Part shown: positions 9,348 to 59,070 of the stretch, in pieces | Layout of the letters: each line of letters opens with the position of its first letter | Numbering within the stretch: the stretch's first letter is position 1 | From: Deltaproteobacteria bacterium | GTDB lineage: Bacteria; Desulfobacterota; Desulfobacteria; Desulfobacterales; ETH-SRB1 | Reading direction: 5' to 3' | DNA length: 64,000 nt | NCBI GenBank assembly: GCA_030272815.1 | Contig: JAJSZT010000001.1 | Span: 38,337-102,336 of the forward strand | Notes under the pieces: model-generated | What the model was told of the DNA's origin: nothing | Databases searched by the model: none | What the model saw: only the letters and a program-made list of their open reading frames with translations | Program-made: the position numbers and the translations under genes

Positions 9348-9414
9348 GGACCTTTGCAGGGGACTATAGATTTTCACAAGCCTGACAGTATTCCCTGCAA
9401 TTCCTTTATTTTTC

Positions 9415-9560
9415 GTAGCCATTCACGGCTTGAAACTTGAAATTGGAAAGTAGAAATTTGGGAGAGATTAAAATAGAAATTGGAAAGTAGAAATTGGGAA
9501 GAACAGTACAAAAACATGAAGGCCCAATTTCCAATTTCTATTTTCAATGTTCTGTGAACG
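9415..9560. repeat. family A hairpin element, ORF-less copy
   Basis: The sequence runs gtagccattcacggcttgaaacttgaaattggaaagtagaaatttggg...aacagtacaaaaacatgaaggcccaatttccaatttc...tgtgaacg. It shares arms with copies at 22340, 36463 and 58564. Confidence 0.8.
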
Positions 9561-9564
9561 TTTA

Positions 9565-9954
9565 CTATTTTTCTTTTTCCTTGAGCAGCTTGTGCTGGTA
9601 AGCCTCTCCTGTTTTGATAAGCAGTTCGTCGATATCACAAGGTTTCATTACATAATCATAAGCGCCTAATTTCATGGCTTCCATACCAGACTCGATCGAG
9701 GCATGTCCGGTAAGCATAACAATCTCTATGGCCGGCTGGAGCTGCTTGATCTGCTTCAAGGTTTCAATACCGTCGATTCCGGGCATCTTAACGTCTATAA
9801 CAGCTACATCAAAAGACTTTTGCCTGACCAGATCTATAGCCTCCTTGCCGCTTGCTACATCCGTGATATCTATTTTCCTTAATTTCAGCCTGTTAGTAAG
9901 AGTTATTCTAAAGTCGTCCTCGTCATCGACCAACAGCATCCGAATTTCCTCCAT
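9565..9954 (-). CDS. single-domain CheY-like response regulator
   Basis: MLLVDDEDD, FDVAVIDVKMPGIDG and a conserved K in YDYVMKP. 129 aa, downstream of the kinase gene. Confidence 0.85.
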   Translation of the reverse strand: MEEIRMLLVDDEDDFRITLTNRLKLRKIDITDVASGKEAIDLVRQKSFDVAVIDVKMPGIDGIETLKQIKQLQPAIEIVMLTGHASIESGMEAMKLGAYDYVMKPCDIDELLIKTGEAYQHKLLKEKEK

Positions 9955-22339: not shown

Positions 22340-22422
22340 GTAGCCGTTCACGGCTTGAAACTTGAAATTGGAAAGTAGAAATTGGGAAGAACAGCACAAA
22401 AGCATGAAGGCCAAATTTCCAA
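22340..22422. repeat. family A hairpin element, short ORF-less copy
   Basis: gtagccgttcacggcttgaaacttgaaattggaaagtagaaattgggaagaacagcacaaaagcatgaaggccaaatttcc. It lies immediately upstream of the leader of array 1. Confidence 0.8.
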
Positions 22423-22650: not shown

Positions 22651-22988
22651 ATCTGAAACTGAGACCTGATGAATAAGGGATTGAGACGACTGGCCTTCCG
22701 CTCCAAGCACGGCGCCTTTACCAGATCTGAAACTGAGACCTGATGAATAAGGGATTGAGACAAATTATCGCGGATAGCAATAATTTTTTTATTGCTTACA
22801 TCTGAAACTGAGACCTGATGAATAAGGGATTGAGACTTAATTATTGTTTCTTCTCTTATTATAGCTTTCATTTTTATCTGAAACTGAGACCTGATGAATA
22901 AGGGATTGAGACAAACATTATAGATGATGCTTCTATAGAAGTATTTTCATCATCTGAAACTGAGACCTGATGAATAAGGGATTGAGAC
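22651..22988 (+). CRISPR. CRISPR array 1: 5 x 37-bp repeat, 4 spacers (37-39 bp)
   Basis: Repeat ATCTGAAACTGAGACCTGATGAATAAGGGATTGAGAC at 22651, 22725, 22800, 22876 and 22952. Orientation is inferred from the upstream leader and the 3-prime ATTGAGAC, which fits the 8-nt Cas6 crRNA tag. Confidence 0.95.
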
Positions 22989-23089
22989 GCCTGCGGCGCA
23001 GGGATTAGGGATGTAGTGATAAGGTCGAGCAGTTCTATAAATATACTTTGCACGGCTATAAACTGCGCTTTTTGAAACGGTCAGGATTA

Positions 23090-33114: not shown

Positions 33115-34116
33115 ATGGCCAATCTTTACCTGACAGAGCAAAACTCAATCCTCCGCAAAACCGGCGACAGACTTATTGTGCAAAAAGCCGATGAAATCCT
33201 TCTTGATGTGCAATGCCACAAGATAGATGCAGTCCTTATCTTCGGAAATGTCCAGTTCACCACTCAGGCTGTGCATGAACTTTTTGAGCATGGCATAGAA
33301 ATGGCCATTCTCTCGCGAAGAGGAAGACTGATAGGACAGATAACATCTCCAGCTACAAAAAATATCACTTTGCGCGTCCAGCAGTTTGAAAAGTACACTG
33401 ATAATGAATTCAGGCTGAAGTTGTCTATTGAAATTGTAACTGGAAAAATCAATAATTCTCTTAAAGTTATCCGTCATTTTTCTTACAATCATCCTGATAT
33501 TGCACTTAAATCCGAGACTGCTGCTTTAAAAACATCACTCGAAAACGTTAAATCTGCCAGCCGGATTGACCAACTGTTGGGACTGGAAGGAGGAGCGGCT
33601 AAGACCTATTTTAGCGCATTTGGCAAGATGATTATTGGCGAGTTCAATTTTACGGGCAGGAAAAAGCGCCCTCCCACAGATCCGGTTAATGCAATACTTT
33701 CTTTAAGCTACACAATGATCTTTAATGAAATATCATCACTTTTAGACGGGTTAGGCCTTGATCCCTATCTCGGTTATTTTCATAGCGTTGACTACGGGAG
33801 AGCATCTCTTGCCGCAGACCTTATTGAAGAATTCCGGGCGCCGATAGCTGACCGTTTTACACTCAATCTCATAAACAATCGAATTGTCGGGGAAGAAGAT
33901 TTTTACACAAATCCCAAAGGCGCCGGGGTTTATCTGAAACGTGAAGCATTAAAGCGTTATTTTACAGAATACGAAACTATGCTCAACCATGAATTTATCC
34001 ATCCGAAAACAAAGGAAAATACCACTTTTAGAAAGTGTTTTCGCTTACAGGCAGAGAATCTTGCTTTGACAATTCAAAACGACAGCTCATATATTCCTTT
34101 TGCTCTGGAGATATAG
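33115..34116 (+). CDS. cas1: Cas1 integrase
   Basis: LLGLEGGAAKTYF, RPPTDPVNAILS and GYFHSVDYGRASLAADLIEEFR (Cas1 catalytic E/H/E context). 333 aa. Confidence 0.95.
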   Translation: MANLYLTEQNSILRKTGDRLIVQKADEILLDVQCHKIDAVLIFGNVQFTTQAVHELFEHGIEMAILSRRGRLIGQITSPATKNITLRVQQFEKYTDNEFRLKLSIEIVTGKINNSLKVIRHFSYNHPDIALKSETAALKTSLENVKSASRIDQLLGLEGGAAKTYFSAFGKMIIGEFNFTGRKKRPPTDPVNAILSLSYTMIFNEISSLLDGLGLDPYLGYFHSVDYGRASLAADLIEEFRAPIADRFTLNLINNRIVGEEDFYTNPKGAGVYLKREALKRYFTEYETMLNHEFIHPKTKENTTFRKCFRLQAENLALTIQNDSSYIPFALEI

Positions 34117-34121
34117 CCTGC

Positions 34122-34397
34122 ATGTTTTACCTTGTTTCATACGACATACCCGACGACAAACGGAGAACCAAACTTGCAAAAACCATTAAGAATTTTGGAG
34201 ACAGGGTTCAATATAGTGTTTTTGAGTGCATCCTGGACAAAAACCTCCTTGACAAAATGGCAGACAGAATAGATAAAATCATCGTTGAAAAAGAAGACAG
34301 CGTACGCATCTATTGTCTTTGCGCGAACTGTGAAAGGGAAATCAGGATAATCGGCAAGGGAGAAGTGTCTAAAAACGAAGATGTGTATATAATTTAG
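34122..34397 (+). CDS. cas2: Cas2
   Basis: MFYLVSYDIPDDKRRTKLAKTIKNFGDRVQYSVFEC is a canonical Cas2 N-terminus. ATG 34122 is chosen because the upstream part of ORF 34035 overlaps cas1. Confidence 0.95.
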   Translation: MFYLVSYDIPDDKRRTKLAKTIKNFGDRVQYSVFECILDKNLLDKMADRIDKIIVEKEDSVRIYCLCANCEREIRIIGKGEVSKNEDVYII

Positions 34398-34594: not shown

Positions 34595-35237
34595 ATCTGA
34601 AACTGAGACCTGATGAATAAGGGATTGAGACTGATAAACCATGCAGCAGCATCAGTAAGATAATGATTCAATCTGAAACTGAGACCTGATGAATAAGGGA
34701 TTGAGACTTTTTTGCTAAATCAGTATATGTTTTAAAACTACCTATTATCTGAAACTGAGACCTGATGAATAAGGGATTGAGACTCGCGCCACATTAACCT
34801 GAAAACGGGAGCCAAGTTATCATCTGAAACTGAGACCTGATGAATAAGGGATTGAGACTTTTAAAAGTATTGCCATTTATACCAAGTCCGTTACTCTATC
34901 TGAAACTGAGACCTGATGAATAAGGGATTGAGACCTGGGGGGTTATAAATGCATACATCAGAGATTTGTTTATCTGAAACTGAGACCTGATGAATAAGGG
35001 ATTGAGACTGTTGCAGAGCTATTTATACCTGCCTGGATACCATCAATTATCTGAAACTGAGACCTGATGAATAAGGGATTGAGACTATGTAAGCTCCGAT
35101 GTTCTGTTTATAATCTCGTTGATCTGAAACTGAGACCTGATGAATAAGGGATTGAGACTCCGTAAACACCTTGCTGTTGTTAAACCCGGCAGTTCCTATC
35201 ATCTGAAACTGAGACCTGATGAATAAGGGATTGAGCG
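34595..35237 (+). CRISPR. CRISPR array 2: 9 repeats (last one degenerate), 8 spacers (36-42 bp)
   Basis: Repeats start at 34595, 34671, 34747, 34822, 34898, 34972, 35049, 35122 and 35201. The terminal repeat ends ...gattgagcg instead of ...gattgagac. Confidence 0.95.
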
Positions 35238-35298
35238 CCTGCGGCGTAGAGATGTAGGGATGTAGGGACGTAGAGATGTAGGAAAGTAGAGGAGGAAG

Positions 35299-35385
35299 AT
35301 GGGGAAGATAGAATCTTTCAGGGAGTTAACTGTTTGGCAAAAATCCCATCAGTTATTTTTGGATATTGCAAATGATGTGGAATGA
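35299..35385 (+). pseudogene. 5-prime fragment of a four-helix-bundle (23S rRNA IVS/Avd-like) gene in the array trailer
   Basis: Encodes MGKIESFRELTVWQKSHQLFLDIANDVE then a stop, matching the family N-terminus (F..L.VWQKa..L). It is preceded by tandem gtag(a/g)gat motifs. Homologous trailer pieces lie at 22989..23033 and 38204..38349. Confidence 0.6.
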
Positions 35386-35429
35386 TGAATGATGAAAGCG
35401 GAATGATGAATAATAAGGAGGTAAATAGC

Positions 35430-35684
35430 ATGGAGGATGTCTTAACCATCCATATTCCTGACGAAATTCGGCAGAAGCTAAATCGCACGCCCGAAGAAAT
35501 GTGCCGTGATATTCGCATTTACGCTGCATTAATGCTTTTCCGTCTCGGGAAATTATCTTCAGGAGCGGCGGCATTAATGGCGGGAATTCCCCGCGTGATG
35601 TTCCTGGATCTGTGTGCGGAATATAATATTCCTATCTCGCAAATCACTCCGGAGGAACTACGTCGAGAGGTAAGCGATGCATAA
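35430..35684 (+). CDS. UPF0175-family antitoxin
   Basis: LRIYAALMLFRLGKLSSGAAALMAGIPRVMFLDLCAEYNIP is typical of UPF0175. AAGGAGG precedes ATG 35430, and the gene overlaps the PIN gene by 8 nt. Confidence 0.75.
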   Translation: MEDVLTIHIPDEIRQKLNRTPEEMCRDIRIYAALMLFRLGKLSSGAAALMAGIPRVMFLDLCAEYNIPISQITPEELRREVSDA

Positions 35685-36177
35685 ACAGTCATTAGTTTGT
35701 GACACATCGCTGCTGCTATACTTAGGACGTATGGAGAACGAAGACCTTCTTCGGGTGTTGTTTGAAAAAGTATATGTGACGGAACAGGTAGCCCTTGAAC
35801 TGGATGCCGGGCGTTTGCTACGAAGCGATACTATTAATCCCCGCTTGTTTGATTGGATAACATTGATATCGATTTCTCAGGAAGAAATGGATACTTTGCC
35901 CCCAAATCGGTTGGGAATTGGCGAGCAGTTAGTCATCGCTTATGCAAGAATCCACGCTAACTGTGTGGTAGGGCTCGATGATCGACAGGCTCGAATTCTG
36001 GCAGAACACCTTGGTCTAAAAGTGGTTGGCGTGATTGGTATTTTGTTGAAAGCAAAACGTGCAGGGTTGCTTTCTTCCGTACGTCCTTTTTTGGAGGCTG
36101 CCCAGGCTCATGGCTTTCGCATGGCCAAAGAATTGTACGAGGAAGCAGTACGATTGGCTGGAGAAGAAAATGAGTAA
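35677..36177 (+). CDS. PIN-like (DUF3368-type) toxin
   Basis: LVCDTSLLLYLGRMENEDLL at the N-terminus (acidic PIN residue context) and VVGLDDRQAR. 166 aa, paired with the UPF0175 gene. Confidence 0.7.
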   Translation: MHKQSLVCDTSLLLYLGRMENEDLLRVLFEKVYVTEQVALELDAGRLLRSDTINPRLFDWITLISISQEEMDTLPPNRLGIGEQLVIAYARIHANCVVGLDDRQARILAEHLGLKVVGVIGILLKAKRAGLLSSVRPFLEAAQAHGFRMAKELYEEAVRLAGEENE

Positions 36178-36187
36178 AAGGCATGTA

Positions 36188-36462
36188 ATGTTTACCTTGT
36201 CTCTTACGACATACCCGACAACAAACGGAGAACCAAACTTGCAAAAACCATTAAGGATTTTGGAGACAGGGTTCAATATAGCGTATTTGAATGTTTACTC
36301 GATAAAAGTCTCCTTGACAAAATGACTGGCAGAATAGATAAAATTATCGTTGAGAAAGAAGACAGTGTACGCATCTATTGTCTTTGCGCAAACTGTGAAA
36401 GGGAAATCAGGGTAATCGGCAAGGGAAAAGTGACTAAAAACGAAGATGTGTATATAATTTAG
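36188..36462 (+). pseudogene. cas2: second cas2 copy, frameshifted just after the start codon
   Basis: About 90 percent identical by eye to cas2 at 34122..34397. It reads atgtttaccttg where the intact copy reads atgttttaccttg (T4 to T3). The Cas2 frame then has no start codon until an internal Met. Confidence 0.8.
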
Positions 36463-36580
36463 GTAGCCGTTCACGGCTTGAAACTTGAAATTGGAAAGTA
36501 GAAATTAGGGAGAGATAAAATAGAAATTGGGAAGAACGGTATAAAAGCATGAAGGCCAAATTTCCAATTTCTAATTTCGG
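36463..36580. repeat. family A hairpin element inserted between the cas2 pseudogene and leader 3
   Basis: gtagccgttcacggcttgaaacttgaaattggaaagtagaaattaggg...catgaaggccaaatttccaatttctaatttcgg. tatataatttag occurs at 36451..36462 and again at 36669..36680, separated by this element plus ~90 nt of additional sequence. Confidence 0.75.
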
Positions 36581-36680
36581 CATTGTTAAATAAGAATAGG
36601 TTTAAACAATTTTTATTGTATTATTTCAACGCATTGAGATAAATAAAACTATCCAAAATTAACAATGCTATATAATTTAG

Positions 36681-36877: not shown

Positions 36878-37216
36878 ATCTGAAACTGAGACCTGATGAA
36901 TAAGGGATTGAGACATGTTTTATAGCTTCCCAAAAATGTGTAACTTGATCAGATCTGAAACTGAGACCTGATGAATAAGGGATTGAGACGCAATATATCC
37001 CTGAACTTTGCCAAGATATAGATCAATTATCTGAAACTGAGACCTGATGAATAAGGGATTGAGACTTCGTTTTTTCTAACTGTTGGACCAACTGTTCCCG
37101 CTGTATCTGAAACTGAGACCTGATGAATAAGGGATTGAGACACAAAGAACTGAAATAGAGATTGTGCTCGTTTGTTAGAATCTGAAACTGAGACCTGATG
37201 AATAAGGGATTGAGAC
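36878..37216 (+). CRISPR. CRISPR array 3: 5 repeats, 4 spacers (38-39 bp), 3-prime end disrupted
   Basis: Repeats start at 36878, 36953, 37029, 37105 and 37180. There is no degenerate terminal repeat or trailer directly after 37216. Confidence 0.95.
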
Positions 37217-37693: not shown

Positions 37694-38003
37694 CGGTATT
37701 ATTAGCGAAGCCAATGATGTCGCAGAAAAATACAACTTGCAACTTGTGGAAATAGACAGTACCGATAATATCATTAGCCTGAAATTATTGATAGACAATG
37801 ATCTATTTATCCAAGTATATGGAAATGCACAAAAGGACAAGCTCAATCTTGCCCTTGCTGTCATTCCCTTGATGCTCCCGATGAACATATCTTTGTTGAT
37901 GACAGGAAATCTATCGGAGACTTTGTTTGTGAATCGATGGAATTCCTGGAAAGCAGGGATATATTATAGACCTGATGTTCCTGGATCTGTGCGCAGAATA
38001 TAA
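37683..38003 (+). CDS. hypothetical protein, probably truncated by rearrangement
   Basis: 106-aa ORF. Its 3-prime end runs into the 147-bp duplicated toxin-antitoxin segment starting at 37973, so the C-terminus is likely not native. Confidence 0.35.
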   Translation: MKLSGIISEANDVAEKYNLQLVEIDSTDNIISLKLLIDNDLFIQVYGNAQKDKLNLALAVIPLMLPMNISLLMTGNLSETLFVNRWNSWKAGIYYRPDVPGSVRRI

Positions 38004-38119
38004 TATTCCTATTTCACAAATCACACCGGAGGAACTGCGTCGAGAGGTAAGCAATGCATGAACAGTCATTAGTTTGCGACACATCGTTGCTGCTATACTT
38101 AGGACGTATGGAGAACGAA
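37973..38119 (+). repeat. 147-bp duplicate of the UPF0175 3-prime end / PIN 5-prime end
   Basis: Aligns with 35596..35742 (tgatgttcctggatctgtg...cttaggacgtatggagaacgaa) with scattered substitutions. Confidence 0.85.
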
Positions 38120-38180: not shown

Positions 38181-38349
38181 CTGTTGAATAAGGGATTGAG
38201 CGCCTTCGGCGCAGGGATTAGGGACATAGAGACGCAGGGATGTAGAAAACTAGAGTGAGGAAGATGGGAAGGATAGAATCTTTTAGTGGGTTAACTGTTT
38301 GGCAATAATCCCATCAGTTATTTTTGACCGAGCCCTAAGGTCGAGCAGT
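38181..38349 (+). repeat. orphan degenerate terminal CRISPR repeat fragment plus conserved trailer
   Basis: ctgttgaataagggattgagcg matches the last 22 nt of the degenerate terminal repeat. It is followed by ccttcggcgcagggattaggg... and a four-helix-bundle gene fragment (MGRIESFSGLTVWQ then stop). Confidence 0.75.
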
Positions 38350-39526: not shown

Positions 39527-39782
39527 CGTCTTGGTGTTCTTGTGACAAAAAATATCGGTGTACTTATGGTTAAGCCCTTAGGTAGTGCCTGAACGAAAAG
39601 TATTTCTTTCAATACTGGCAATAGTTTCAGCTTATTTGTAAAAAAGCTAACTGCTAAAAAACAAAGCTAAAGGCTAATTGCTAAAAGCTAACTGCTAAAA
39701 ATCTTCGATTTGAGAATAGTATCCAACTAACTATAATTTCAGGTGTTCTGAGTTTCCGTTCGGGCAATAAGGTAAGGATAAA

Positions 39783-42634: not shown

Positions 42635-42741
42635 TTTTTTTTCAGTCCCTCCTGGGCAAAAGGGGGCGTTTTGCAAAGCCCTTAGGGTCTGTCATAAATG
42701 TAATAGTTATTTCATGACAGACCCTCGCCCGGGCACAACAT

Positions 42742-46489: not shown

Positions 46490-46637
46490 AGCTTTTAGCA
46501 GTTAGCTTTTAGCAGTTAGCACAATAATTTCAATATATTGATAGATATCGACATTTCACCCAATGGGTGAAAATCGAATCGCTGGTAACCACCTGAAATA
46601 ATAAGAGCTAACAGCTAATTGCTAAGAGCTAATAGCT
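46490..46637. repeat. family G palindrome (gagcttttagcagttagcttttagcagttagc ... gagctaacagctaattgctaagagctaatagc)
   Basis: Inverted arms of tandem gctaa/ttagc motifs. Related half-elements lie at ~16561..16636 and ~39644..39700. Confidence 0.75.
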
Positions 46638-51524: not shown

Positions 51525-51701
51525 TATTACTCATAAAGATGACCCCAAATGAATCTCCAAAACCGACTTAAAGAGACCTTTGAAAAATGTTCAATTTTGT
51601 TCAAGTTCAAGGAAGGCGAAAATTTTAAATGCAGGAATACATTGAGTATTTTGAGGCTTAAAATTTGAGACTGACGCCGAAATTGGGCAAAAGGGGGCGT
51701 T

Positions 51702-53018
51702 TTGCAAAGGTCTCTTAAACTCACCAGAGTTGCTCTGATAATTGTCTGGAGTATCAGTTTTTTCTGTTTTGTTCTGACACTGATGACAGGCATGAGATCA
51801 CCCTATGCCGGGCCAAATAGCTTTGTTTGGCTTCAAAGTCTTGGCATTTTTACTTTACTTTTAGGAATAGGAGGCTGTTTATGTTATGGCCGATGGCGCT
51901 TTCGCAGCCTTCAAAATCAAATTTCAGACCAATCGAAAGAAATCAAACGATCTAAGGAGAGATATCGGATTTTGGTGGAAAGCGCTGAAGACTTTATCTT
52001 TACAGTAGATCGCTCCGGACGCTTTCGATCTCTCAACAGTTTTACCGCTGCTTTTTTTGGAGGAGTCCCTTCGCAATTTATAGGCCGGTCGCTTTCAGAT
52101 TTTTTTTCACAAGAAGTTGCCGGAGAACAACTCAAGCTTATCAAATCGGTGTTCCAGTTTGGAAAAAGCATGCGGGATGAGTTTATGATAGCCAGAGGGG
52201 AATATCAGATATGGCTCAGTGCTAACTTTATGCCACGCAAGGACGAGAAAGGCAATGTAATCTCGGTTCTGTGCATTGCCAGAGATATTACAGAAAGCAA
52301 GAAGCTGGAAAACCAGCTTATTAATACTGAAAAACTTGCTTCAATGGGAACCTTAGCTGCGGGAGTTGCACACGAGATCAACAACCCGCTTGGTATTATC
52401 CTGGGTTTTACCGATCTTCTTCTGGAAAAATGTGAAAAAAACAGTCAGGGTTATCAAGACCTGAAAACAATTGAACGCCAAGGCCTTCATTGCAAGGCAG
52501 TAGTGGAAAACCTGCTGAGATTTGCCCGTCATGGAGAGGGCATTTACGAACACTGTGATATCAATGAATCTATCAGAAATATCATGGACGTGGTTAAACA
52601 CTCATTGGACATGAACGATATTGAGCTTCGATTGAGTCTCGCGCCTGATCTTCCTGAAGTTAAAGGTGATTTACGACAAATGCAGCAGGTAATACTGAAC
52701 CTGGTCAATAACGCAACGGCTGCAATGAAAAATGGAGGTGTCTTGTGGATAAGTTCAGTTCTTGATGCTAATAATGAAAAGGTTGTTGTAATTGTTCGCG
52801 ATAATGGACATGGTATCCCGCCTGAATACATGGATAAAATTTTTGATCCATTTTTTACGACAAAGAGTGAAGGGGAAGGCACGGGTTTGGGTCTCTCTGT
52901 AACTCATGGAATTATAAGTAAATATGAGGGAACCATTTCCTGTGAGAGCAATACAGCTAACTCCGGCAACAACCCCCAAGGAACTACTTTTAAAATCACA
53001 CTCAGGATTAGGGATTGA
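51702..53018 (+). CDS. membrane PAS sensor histidine kinase
   Basis: Two N-terminal TM segments, PAS ([21 protein letters not shown]), H-box VAHEINNP and GTGLGLS. The TTG start at 51702 lies inside a palindromic repeat arm, so the true start is uncertain. Confidence 0.8.
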
Positions 53019-58452: not shown

Positions 58453-58563
58453 CTCTTAAATCTCCATTTATAAAGCCATCAAATACTGATAAACAGATTA
58501 ATTTATATCTATAACAAATGTTTCAGAGTTAACAAACAATATAAATTTCTTATAAGAATTTAT

Positions 58564-58870
58564 GTAACCGTTCACGGCTTGAAACTTGAAATTGGAAAGT
58601 AGAAATTGGGGAGAGATGAAACGAGTTTACGAGTTGGATGTCTACAAACTTGCAGAAGAGTTATCAGATATGGTCTGGCATGACTTTGATAAATGGAACA
58701 AAAAGGTTCAGAACACCGTGGGCTATCGGATAATACGATCATCCGACAGCATAGCTGCAAATATAGCGGAAGGGTATGGTCGGCACACTCCCGCTGAATT
58801 GAATGCGTTCATCAACAGCACAAAAGCATGAAGGCCAAATTTCCAATTTCTATTTTCCGTGAACGCTTAC
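58564..58870. mobile_element. family A hairpin element, longest copy, carrying a four-helix-bundle gene
   Basis: Terminal inverted repeat gtaaccgttcacgg / ccgtgaacgcttac. The inner arms match copies at 9415, 22340 and 36463. The ORF sits between the arms, with the left arm supplying GGGGAGAG as RBS. Confidence 0.5.
58616..58831 (+). CDS. four-helix-bundle protein (23S rRNA intervening-sequence protein/Avd-like family), truncated
   Basis: YELDVYKLAEELSDMVW and RSSDSIAANIAEGYGR are the family signature. Only 71 aa, whereas my recollection is ~120 for the family. Confidence 0.65.
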   Translation: MKRVYELDVYKLAEELSDMVWHDFDKWNKKVQNTVGYRIIRSSDSIAANIAEGYGRHTPAELNAFINSTKA

Positions 58871-59070
58871 GAATTTATTTTGTATTCTGAATAGTTTTCT
58901 ATGATGCCGTGCTTGCTGTCAGCTATACAGGTTTGAGCTTTGAACCCGGTGACCGGTCGTTGATGTTAATTATGAAAATTATTTTGATCTTATGAGCATA
59001 TTTTTCATTGACAGCAGTCAATGTAAGCTTTATATTATGCTCAAATGAGCGTAATAGGAGAGAATATTCA

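Follow-up and report, generated by a model that had tools for sequence, protein, structure and literature searches.

The intervening sequences (IVSs) of 23S rRNA genes and their S23p open reading frames (ORFs) have been suspected of mobility since 1990-93, and Ralph and McClelland are said to have proposed a mobility function for the ORF. This idea is quoted in PMC4990558, and the origin and function of IVSs were still called unclear in 2016, when they were described as possible transposition remnants or mobile elements (PMC4990558). In the Coxiella IVS, a stem of terminal inverted repeats (TIRs) is combined with tandem heptamers (GACAGAT) that lie upstream of the S23p ATG and differ in number from strain to strain; one strain shows a 176-bp deletion in the ORF (PMC4990558). 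The present study concerns a repeat family of similar design, named family A, in a 64,000-nucleotide stretch of DNA (the window) from a Deltaproteobacteria bacterium of the ETH-SRB1 lineage (assembly GCA_030272815.1, contig JAJSZT010000001.1, positions 38,337 to 102,336 of the forward strand). The longest of the four family A copies in the window, at positions 58564-58870, encloses a truncated four-helix-bundle gene. Family A is very likely a transposable element: a cassette of the non-autonomous DNA transposon kind (a mobile insertion cassette), accompanied by derivatives of the MITE type (miniature transposable elements with inverted repeats).

Family A has the IVS-type arrangement of stem and heptamers around an S23p ORF. 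Like the 23S rRNA IVSs with an S23p ORF (Leptospira, Coxiella burnetii, Xanthomonas), it combines an inverted-repeat stem around an ORF of the PF05635/TIGR02436 family with tandem repeats of about 7 nt, variable in number, before the ATG; in both, the Shine-Dalgarno spacing is poor and the ORF is prone to internal deletion, and the best structural match of the family A protein is the Xanthomonas protein Xcc0516 (see below). Unlike IVSs, however, family A copies occupy more than 100 sites, which are in intergenic, AT-rich DNA and not in rRNA, and they display 8-bp target-site duplications (TSDs) and empty-site polymorphism, neither of which is reported for IVSs in PMC4990558. Rfam gave no match in the whole window (gathering thresholds) or in the element (E<=10), no conserved 16S or 23S rRNA motif was found in about 145 loci, and the neighbouring genes are protein-coding, in keeping with the claim of an earlier, sequence-only reading of the window that the gene sits in a stem-loop outside rRNA. 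An IVS in the strict sense was rejected, the copies not being in rRNA.

The 307-bp copy is made up of the following parts.

58556-58563: left TSD, gaatttat, with an identical 8-mer at 58871-58878
58564-58577, plus strand: left TIR, GTAACCGTTCACGG; the 79-copy consensus is GTAGCCGTTCACGG
58578-58615, plus strand: left subterminal arm, with spacer CTTGAAACTT, heptads GAAATTG/GAAAGTA/GAAATTG, then GGGGAGAG up to the ATG
58616-58831, plus strand: truncated four-helix-bundle ORF, 71 aa, assigned by PF05635, TIGR02436 and alignment to 117-aa relatives
58832-58856, plus strand: right subterminal arm, AGGCCAAATTTCCAATTTCTATTTT, which complements the left heptads
58857-58870, plus strand: right TIR, CCGTGAACGCTTAC; reverse complement GTAAGCGTTCACGG, with the IS66-type GTAAGCG end
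58871-58878: right TSD, gaatttat, matching the left TSD

The two ends, GTAACCGTTCACGG and CCGTGAACGCTTAC, are complementary at 13 of 14 positions, as originally stated. The left arm is composed of purine-rich repeats of about 7 nt, and the pyrimidine-rich right arm, 3' of the ORF, reads CCAAATTTCCAATTTCTATTTTC. Perfect 8-bp direct repeats, absent from the sequence-only reading, border both this copy and the one at 9415. GGGGAGAG immediately precedes ATG 58616, with 0 nt between them, as that reading had it, but the role of ribosome-binding site suggested for it is doubtful because the GGAG core lies 2 nt from the ATG, nearer than the usual Shine-Dalgarno spacing of 5-9 nt. The ORF scores above the curated cut-offs of both PF05635 (E=1.2e-11; 45.2 bits, cut-off 33.8; profile positions 2-64 of 106) and TIGR02436 (41.2 bits, cut-off 24), which upholds its assignment to the four-helix-bundle family. 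It is also truncated, as had been noticed: alignment to 117-aa relatives places codons 1-61 directly in frame with the last 10 codons, residues 62-107 having been lost through a 138-bp in-frame deletion (reference positions 233-371; junction 58798/58799). The product therefore falls short of a complete four-helix bundle (about 110-125 aa), helix 3 and most of helix 4 being deleted. No promoter-like site was found by scan in the left arm, the sole strong match (11/12) lying downstream of the element at 59008-59036. Because of the missing helices and the lack of a promoter-like site in the left arm, the 307-bp copy is considered to be decayed and most likely a pseudogene. Folded as RNA, the 307-bp unit forms a long terminal stem (-85 kcal/mol, z=-3.45). 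The neighbouring genes, identified with Pfam, encode a Na/Ca exchanger and a DUF134 protein.

When one genome per species was scanned with an exact 25-mer of the left arm, at least 110 loci (116 instances including the four window copies) were found to share it, in about 35 metagenome-assembled genomes (MAGs). Among the matches listed, nearly all carriers are Desulfobacterota from seeps or hydrothermal settings, among them Seep-SRB2, Eth-SRB1 and Desulfaltia. The instances occupy at least 106 unrelated, independent sites. In 79 copies, the 14-nt TIR consensus is GTAGCCGTTCACGG on the left and, as the reverse complement, GTAAGCGTTCACGG on the right; the end consensus reads GTAGCCGTTCACGGCTTGAAACTT on the left and, again as the reverse complement, GTAAgCGTTCACgGAACgTTGAAA on the right, the right-end sequence of the family being GTAAGCGTTCACGG(AACGTTGAAA). 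Flanking repeats match at 8/8 positions in 19 of 72 unique complete copies and at 7/8 or more in 26 of them. By comparison, 11 shifted registers yielded 0-1 perfect repeats, and 1000 permutations of the flanks a mean of 0.29 and a maximum of 3. The duplicated 8-bp targets are AT-rich. Family A thus possesses the TIRs and the fixed-length TSD of MITEs and mobile insertion cassettes, with which it also shares a high copy number, the absence of an internal transposase, amplifying deletion derivatives and a preference for AT-rich intergenic targets. It differs from them in that its passenger gene and arms are conserved across phyla, which is unusual for cargo, and in that its orientation is strongly biased towards host transcription.

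The copy at 9415 is a proven insertion, polymorphic for presence and absence, with a precise empty site. A 34-mer made of its left flank, a single TATTTTTC and its right flank has an exact match in nine metagenome contigs. These contigs are orthologous to the window and 93-98% identical to it on both sides; the alignment of the window runs to 9414 and continues from 9566, the two subject blocks having exactly 8 nt in common. Other relatives carry the element at this site, in versions that measure 255, 151, 144 (two kinds) and 95 bp. The 255-bp version retains about 50 ORF codons, and the two 144-bp versions have each lost one heptad, from the left arm in one and from the right arm in the other. 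The 58564 site is likewise occupied by a 107-bp version in MAG Meg22_02_Bin_90. These size variants indicate that copies insert and then decay in place.

The full-length unit measures about 452 bp and consists of a TIR, a spacer, a heptad array, a 117-codon gene, a complementary heptad array and a second TIR. The arrays are built of inverted, purine-rich units of about 7 nt (GAAATTG/GAAATTA), and the PF05635/TIGR02436 gene fills the loop: it begins directly behind the left arm and stops 3 nt short of the right one. Pieces of the N-terminal portion of the ORF follow the left arm at a fixed offset in about 33 arm-matched copies; the longest of these (L005, 461 bp) is frameshifted. A 117-aa ORF was reconstructed from the copies with ORF remnants and used as a protein query. 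The reconstructed sequence scores 82.7 bits against TIGR02436 and retrieved 1419 homologues, many of them exactly 117 aa long and 90-97% identical. Several are embedded in complete elements. Locus L111 (452 bp) comprises, in this order, gataatct, GTAGCCGTTCACGG, the arm, GGGAGAG, the ATG and 117 codons, TGA, the other arm, CCGTGAACGGTTAC and gataatct. L122/123 carries an intact ORF element between TSDs gaaaatca, and L130, from a diverged lineage, has TIRs GTAAGTGTTCAC / GTAATCGTTAAC and the TSD aaaaaact. The longest form of the family thus does carry a four-helix-bundle gene, within the same arms, TIRs and 8-bp TSD, as the sequence-only reading had surmised. A situation in which full-length genes are never flanked by these arms and the copies are fixed in all relatives is contradicted by these three loci and by the empty 9415 site. 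The intact copies have housekeeping genes as neighbours. In L111, L130 and L137, the intact gene lies inside a sugar or polysaccharide biosynthesis operon and is co-oriented with it (surrounding genes Bac_transf/PglD/DegT, epimerase/aminotransferase and GFO_IDH/aminotransferase).

The protein of an intact relative (P0005) was modelled as a four-helix bundle (pLDDT 80). The closest folds are those of Xcc0516 (2GSC; TM-score 0.84, 24% identity) and BT_0352 (TM-score 0.82), followed by Avd chains of diversity-generating retroelements (DGRs; 4DWL and 8UB7, TM-score about 0.70, 9% identity). Neither Xcc0516 nor BT_0352 nor Avd is known to be an enzyme.

Placing 79 copies on the 452-bp reference revealed many different internal-deletion breakpoints. 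Together with the ORF remnants at a fixed offset, this map bears out the idea that short copies are internal-deletion derivatives. In the 50->388 class, which constitutes the 100-114-bp form, the arm is joined directly to AACAGTACAAAAGCATGA, the last ORF codons. This deletion is found at no fewer than 10 unrelated sites with different TSDs, which implies that the ORF-less form itself transposed and is a true MITE. Other deletions are also shared between different sites, for example 140->261 in L007 and L058. None of the 116 arm-matched copies listed in the sampled Desulfobacterota MAGs has an intact ORF, and in about one quarter of copies the right end is replaced by unrelated sequence. Decay in place proceeds by internal deletion and by gain or loss of heptads, with conversion between copies probably contributing as well. 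In L002, L058, L069 and L082, a 30-nt GC-rich palindrome, CCTGTCTGCGTGCGGGCACGCACAGGCAGG, lies between GGGAG and the ATG, shifting the ORF start by 30 nt; it looks like a small nested hairpin element. The best 120 hits to a generic PF05635 N-terminal query were all 54-104 aa long, below full length, which suggests that public assemblies contain a great many truncated four-helix-bundle genes, a hint only since the query was partly synthetic.

The 117-aa PF05635 gene is the only ORF in the unit, which contains no transposase. The relationship of autonomous element to deletion derivatives put forward by the sequence-only reading is therefore supported for the derivatives but not for autonomy, as the full-length unit encodes only a helical protein and no recognizable transposase. 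A possible source of the missing activity is suggested by the ends. In the IS66 family, the inverted repeat begins with GTAAGCG and the direct repeat is 8 bp long (PMC11946415); an actual IS66 element on a Janthinobacterium plasmid (L139) starts and ends with GTAAGCGTC... and is flanked by a perfect 8-bp TSD. Family A similarly shows GTAAGCG inverted repeats, the right end being exact in 31 of 79 copies and GTAACCG in 17, and 8-bp direct repeats. As these two features are the signature of that family, movement might be catalyzed in trans by an IS66-family DDE transposase, a possibility to which we assign nearly an even chance. Unlike IS66, family A has no tnpA, tnpB or tnpC, either inside the element or elsewhere in the fetched loci, and it is about 450 bp long as opposed to about 2.5 kb. 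Lacking the tnpA-tnpB-tnpC set, or even TnpC, it is not itself a member of the IS66 family; at most, it could derive from that family or hitch-hike on it. Sequences with GTA...TAC ends, a TIR and an 8-bp TSD were looked for in general, and nothing credible was returned.

In the intact copies, the 117-aa protein is under strong purifying selection. Ratios of nonsynonymous to synonymous substitution (dN/dS) range from 0.04 to 0.17 among seven intact copies. In comparisons of copies whose MAGs are labelled Desulfobacterota, Bacteroidales, Marinimicrobia and Verrucomicrobiota, synonymous sites have reached saturation, and protein identity across phyla is 79-97%; given the saturation, this high identity must reflect constraint and not only recent transfer. 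The non-coding core of the heptad arms (GAAATTGGAAATTAGAAATT; left TGAAATTGGAAATTAGAAATT, right CAAATTTCCAATTTCTAATTTC) is nearly invariant across phyla while identity at codon position 3 is only 0.38-0.60, indicating that the arms are functional sequence. The same plan, built from other units, recurs in two unrelated PF05635 subfamilies (CAGAATA/CAGAAGT in L163, TAGAAT in L165). Furthermore, the element has the orientation of the flanking genes in 44 cases versus 8 when both neighbours agree (p=4e-7), and that of the upstream gene alone in 73 versus 30 (p=2.7e-5). Intact ORFs are co-oriented with the upstream gene in 7/7 cases.

Since the ORF fills the loop, the purine tract before the ATG lies in the stem and orientation follows host transcription, a role at the RNA level can be proposed. 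Read-through transcription from the host operon would cause the arms to fold into a long hairpin, and this hairpin would be a substrate for RNase III as in 23S rRNA IVSs, lessening the harm to the host transcript and gating translation of the ORF. The proposal, drawn from analogy, is a tentative one. It is also conceivable, if somewhat doubtful, that an oligomer of the four-helix-bundle protein binds the heptad arms of its own element. The analogy here is with Avd, which is part of the DGR ribonucleoprotein and thereby suggests nucleic-acid binding as a possible role for the family A protein.

A number of observations weigh against a non-autonomous cassette moved and processed in this manner. 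A constrained ORF across phyla is unexpected for a non-autonomous element, and the ORF must therefore contribute something still unexplained. Intact copies in MAGs assigned to Bacteroidales, Marinimicrobia and Verrucomicrobiota keep the arms and have no clear TIR or TSD (MAG taxonomic labels can, however, be wrong). The left end reads GTAGCCG in 52 of 79 copies, and not GTAAGCG. No transposase was found between family TIR pairs, the three long pairs enclosing host genes only, nor among the roughly 20 window proteins scanned with Pfam. With one TnpB query, validated on plasmids, and two TnpC queries, tblastn detected no homologue of IS66 TnpB or TnpC in the window or in the fetched loci (about 1 Mb), where no insertion sequence bounded by the family TIRs was found either; hence, what points to an IS66 partner is the sequence of the ends and the length of the TSD. 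Finally, the stem shows 0/27 compensatory pairs in 20 short copies, which are too similar to be informative, and the numbers of left and right heptads vary independently in decayed copies.

Another reading is that the cassette belongs to an ancient self-sufficient mobile class, spread across phyla, in which the oligomer binds the heptad arms and drives or directs transposition, 23S IVSs being its insertions in rRNA loops. Such a class, which we regard as unlikely, would work by a new mechanism or by recruiting unrelated transposases. An autonomous element, moved by the four-helix-bundle protein itself (perhaps aided by host factors), with the TIRs and heptad arms as the recognition sites of that protein, appears quite unlikely. 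It would agree with the ORF being the unit's only gene, with its strong purifying selection and its travelling with conserved arms across phyla, and with no transposase having been found near the copies. Yet a 117-aa helical bundle without a known nuclease or transposase catalytic motif, whose relatives Xcc0516, BT_0352 and Avd are non-catalytic, is hard to reconcile with it, as is the combination of fixed 8-bp TSDs and GTAAGCG ends, the signature of the IS66 DDE enzymes. Moreover, 116/116 arm-matched copies listed are devoid of an intact ORF, yet the ORF-less form has reached at least 10 sites.

A non-mobile origin, with host regulatory or terminator hairpins of the repetitive extragenic palindrome (REP) type spread by recombination and the ORF an ordinary host gene flanked by chance, would account for the orientation bias towards host genes, for the conserved arms and for the finding that the sites of both complete window copies are occupied in several relatives. 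This is very improbable in view of the 8-bp TSDs far above controls, the precise empty site in nine orthologous contigs and the number of unrelated sites; in addition, the scan revealed no intrinsic-terminator-like site in the element.

The remaining family A copies in the window, and a site relevant to their history, are as follows.

9407-9573 including TSDs (element 9415-9565, 151 bp), plus strand: complete ORF-less copy; TSD tatttttc at 9407-9414 and 9566-9573
22340-22422, plus strand: right-truncated copy that comprises the left TIR and arm, the 3' end of the ORF and the first part of the right heptad arm, joined to the leader of array 1
36463-~36578, plus strand: right-truncated copy without right TIR, part of a ~218-bp insert (36463-36680) located upstream of the array 3 leader
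34386-34397: paralogous site that lacks the element, upstream of the array 2 leader; it contains TATATAATTTAG once, as shown by the alignment of the sequences upstream of the three leaders

A 31-mer including the last six ORF codons occurs at 9502, 22390, 36535 and 58814 with 0-3 mismatches (0 expected by chance), so that the sharing of this segment by the copies at 9415, 22340, 36463 and 58564, previously pointed out, is confirmed; a TIR-like 14-mer occurs six times in the window against 0.12 expected. The further statement that the three shorter copies keep both arms is true of the 9415 copy, which has both arms and both TIRs, but not of those at 22340 and 36463, which have lost the right TIR. 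The 9415 element is inserted exactly at the 3' end of a response-regulator gene (9565-9954, minus strand), whose stop codon (9565-9567) is made up of the last base of the right TIR and the first two of the TSD.

Two of the four copies adjoin the leaders of CRISPR arrays, and cas loci have been reported to be enriched in PF05635 genes (PMC3936711, PMC10910872). These facts might suggest a leader-proximal element or a "cas-associated" PF05635 gene. The three arrays in the window have near-identical 260-nt leaders. The insert at array 3, which starts with the family A copy, is bounded by a direct repeat, TATATAATTTAG, at 36451-36462 and 36669-36680. The alignment upstream of the leaders shows that the end of this insert is also found at the array 1 copy, which derives from it by deletion. 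As the two copies have insert and truncation pattern in common, they represent a single insertion that was duplicated along with the leader module. In relatives lacking the 9415 insertion, the array 1 copy has the same truncated state, and it is therefore older than that insertion. Array 2 has the same leader and no element, and other copies examined are intergenic, beside unrelated protein-coding genes. A functional link to CRISPR is, for these reasons, barely credible: the adjacency to leaders noted earlier is real for two copies, but targeted insertion is not borne out, the sequence comparisons pointing to segmental duplication of one old insertion along with the leader module. Such copying may help explain the scoring of PF05635 as cas-associated.

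The arrays themselves (22651-22988, 34595-35240 and 36878-37216) have a 37-nt repeat, ATCTGAAACTGAGACCTGATGAATAAGGGATTGAGAC, and cas1 is at 33115-34116. The segment 34126-34401 recurs at 36191-36466 with 91% identity, which, together with the shared 260-nt leaders, indicates that an array-plus-leader module was duplicated within 15 kb. A UPF0175/DUF3368 gene pair of the toxin-antitoxin type (35382-36177) directly follows array 2, and 147 nt of this pair recur behind array 3 (37973-38119). A second hairpin family, B (35233-35385, 38201-38330 and 22988-23020), consists of tandem 8-nt units, GTAGGGAT/GTAGAGAT, followed by AGGAGGAAG, an ATG and a fragment of about 28 codons of a different PF05635 gene (MGKIESFRELTVWQKSHQLFLDIANDVE*). 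A family B copy adjoins the degenerate terminal repeat of each of the three arrays and was therefore likewise copied with the array module. A hybrid query made of the 28-aa family B fragment and a synthetic consensus tail retrieved generic family members only, and thus carries no information on family B.

The notion that family A is a DGR remnant and its ORF an Avd accessory gene has a negligible probability and was rejected: PF05635 does cover Avd at the clan level and the Avd chains share the four-helix fold, but the S23p/IVS branch is closer (TM-score and identity values above), TIRs and TSDs are not DGR features, and the copies examined lie among unrelated housekeeping genes with no reverse transcriptase and no pair of template and variable repeats beside them.

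Other repeats were encountered in the window. Family C is made of periodic 7-nt units, AGCTAAC/TGCTAAA (39642-39700, 46490-46520 and 46602-46637), and forms an inverted pair without an ORF at 46490-46637. Repeats of the family C type interrupt or adjoin family A copies in other MAGs (L057, L061, L079), as if hairpin elements of different families had been inserted into one another. The 26-nt sequence TGGGCAAAAGGGGGCGTTTTGCAAAG occurs twice in identical form, at 42653-42678 and, 9 kb away, at 51684-51709, close to genes for a sensor kinase and a sigma-54 activator. PADLOC gave no match to a defence system, and no tRNA was found. The arm core is also present in 7 viral contigs, solely as ORF-less remnants, and the TIR-plus-arm pattern was not found in viral contigs. 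The IMG/VR contigs L143, L146 and L140-L142 hold ORF-less heptad-arm hairpin remnants, one of which has a right end, CCGTGAAACGGCTCAC, resembling the family TIR. Phages might thus ferry heptad-arm hairpin elements between hosts.

In the literature searched, no relevant paper was found with the arm or TIR sequences of family A, and no description of PF05635 cassettes with TIRs and TSDs; earlier accounts may exist elsewhere. The results show an IVS-like architecture (inverted-repeat stem, heptamers before the ATG and PF05635 ORF in the loop) behaving as a transposon outside rRNA, with ends that point to one candidate transposase family, IS66. This offers a simple explanation for the large number of genes annotated as "four helix bundle protein", for their frequent truncation and for their dispersal over operons and over cas loci, in which they have been scored as CRISPR-associated (PMC3936711, PMC10910872). 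At the same time, the question arises of why the protein and the heptad arms should be conserved together across phyla if movement needs the TIRs only.

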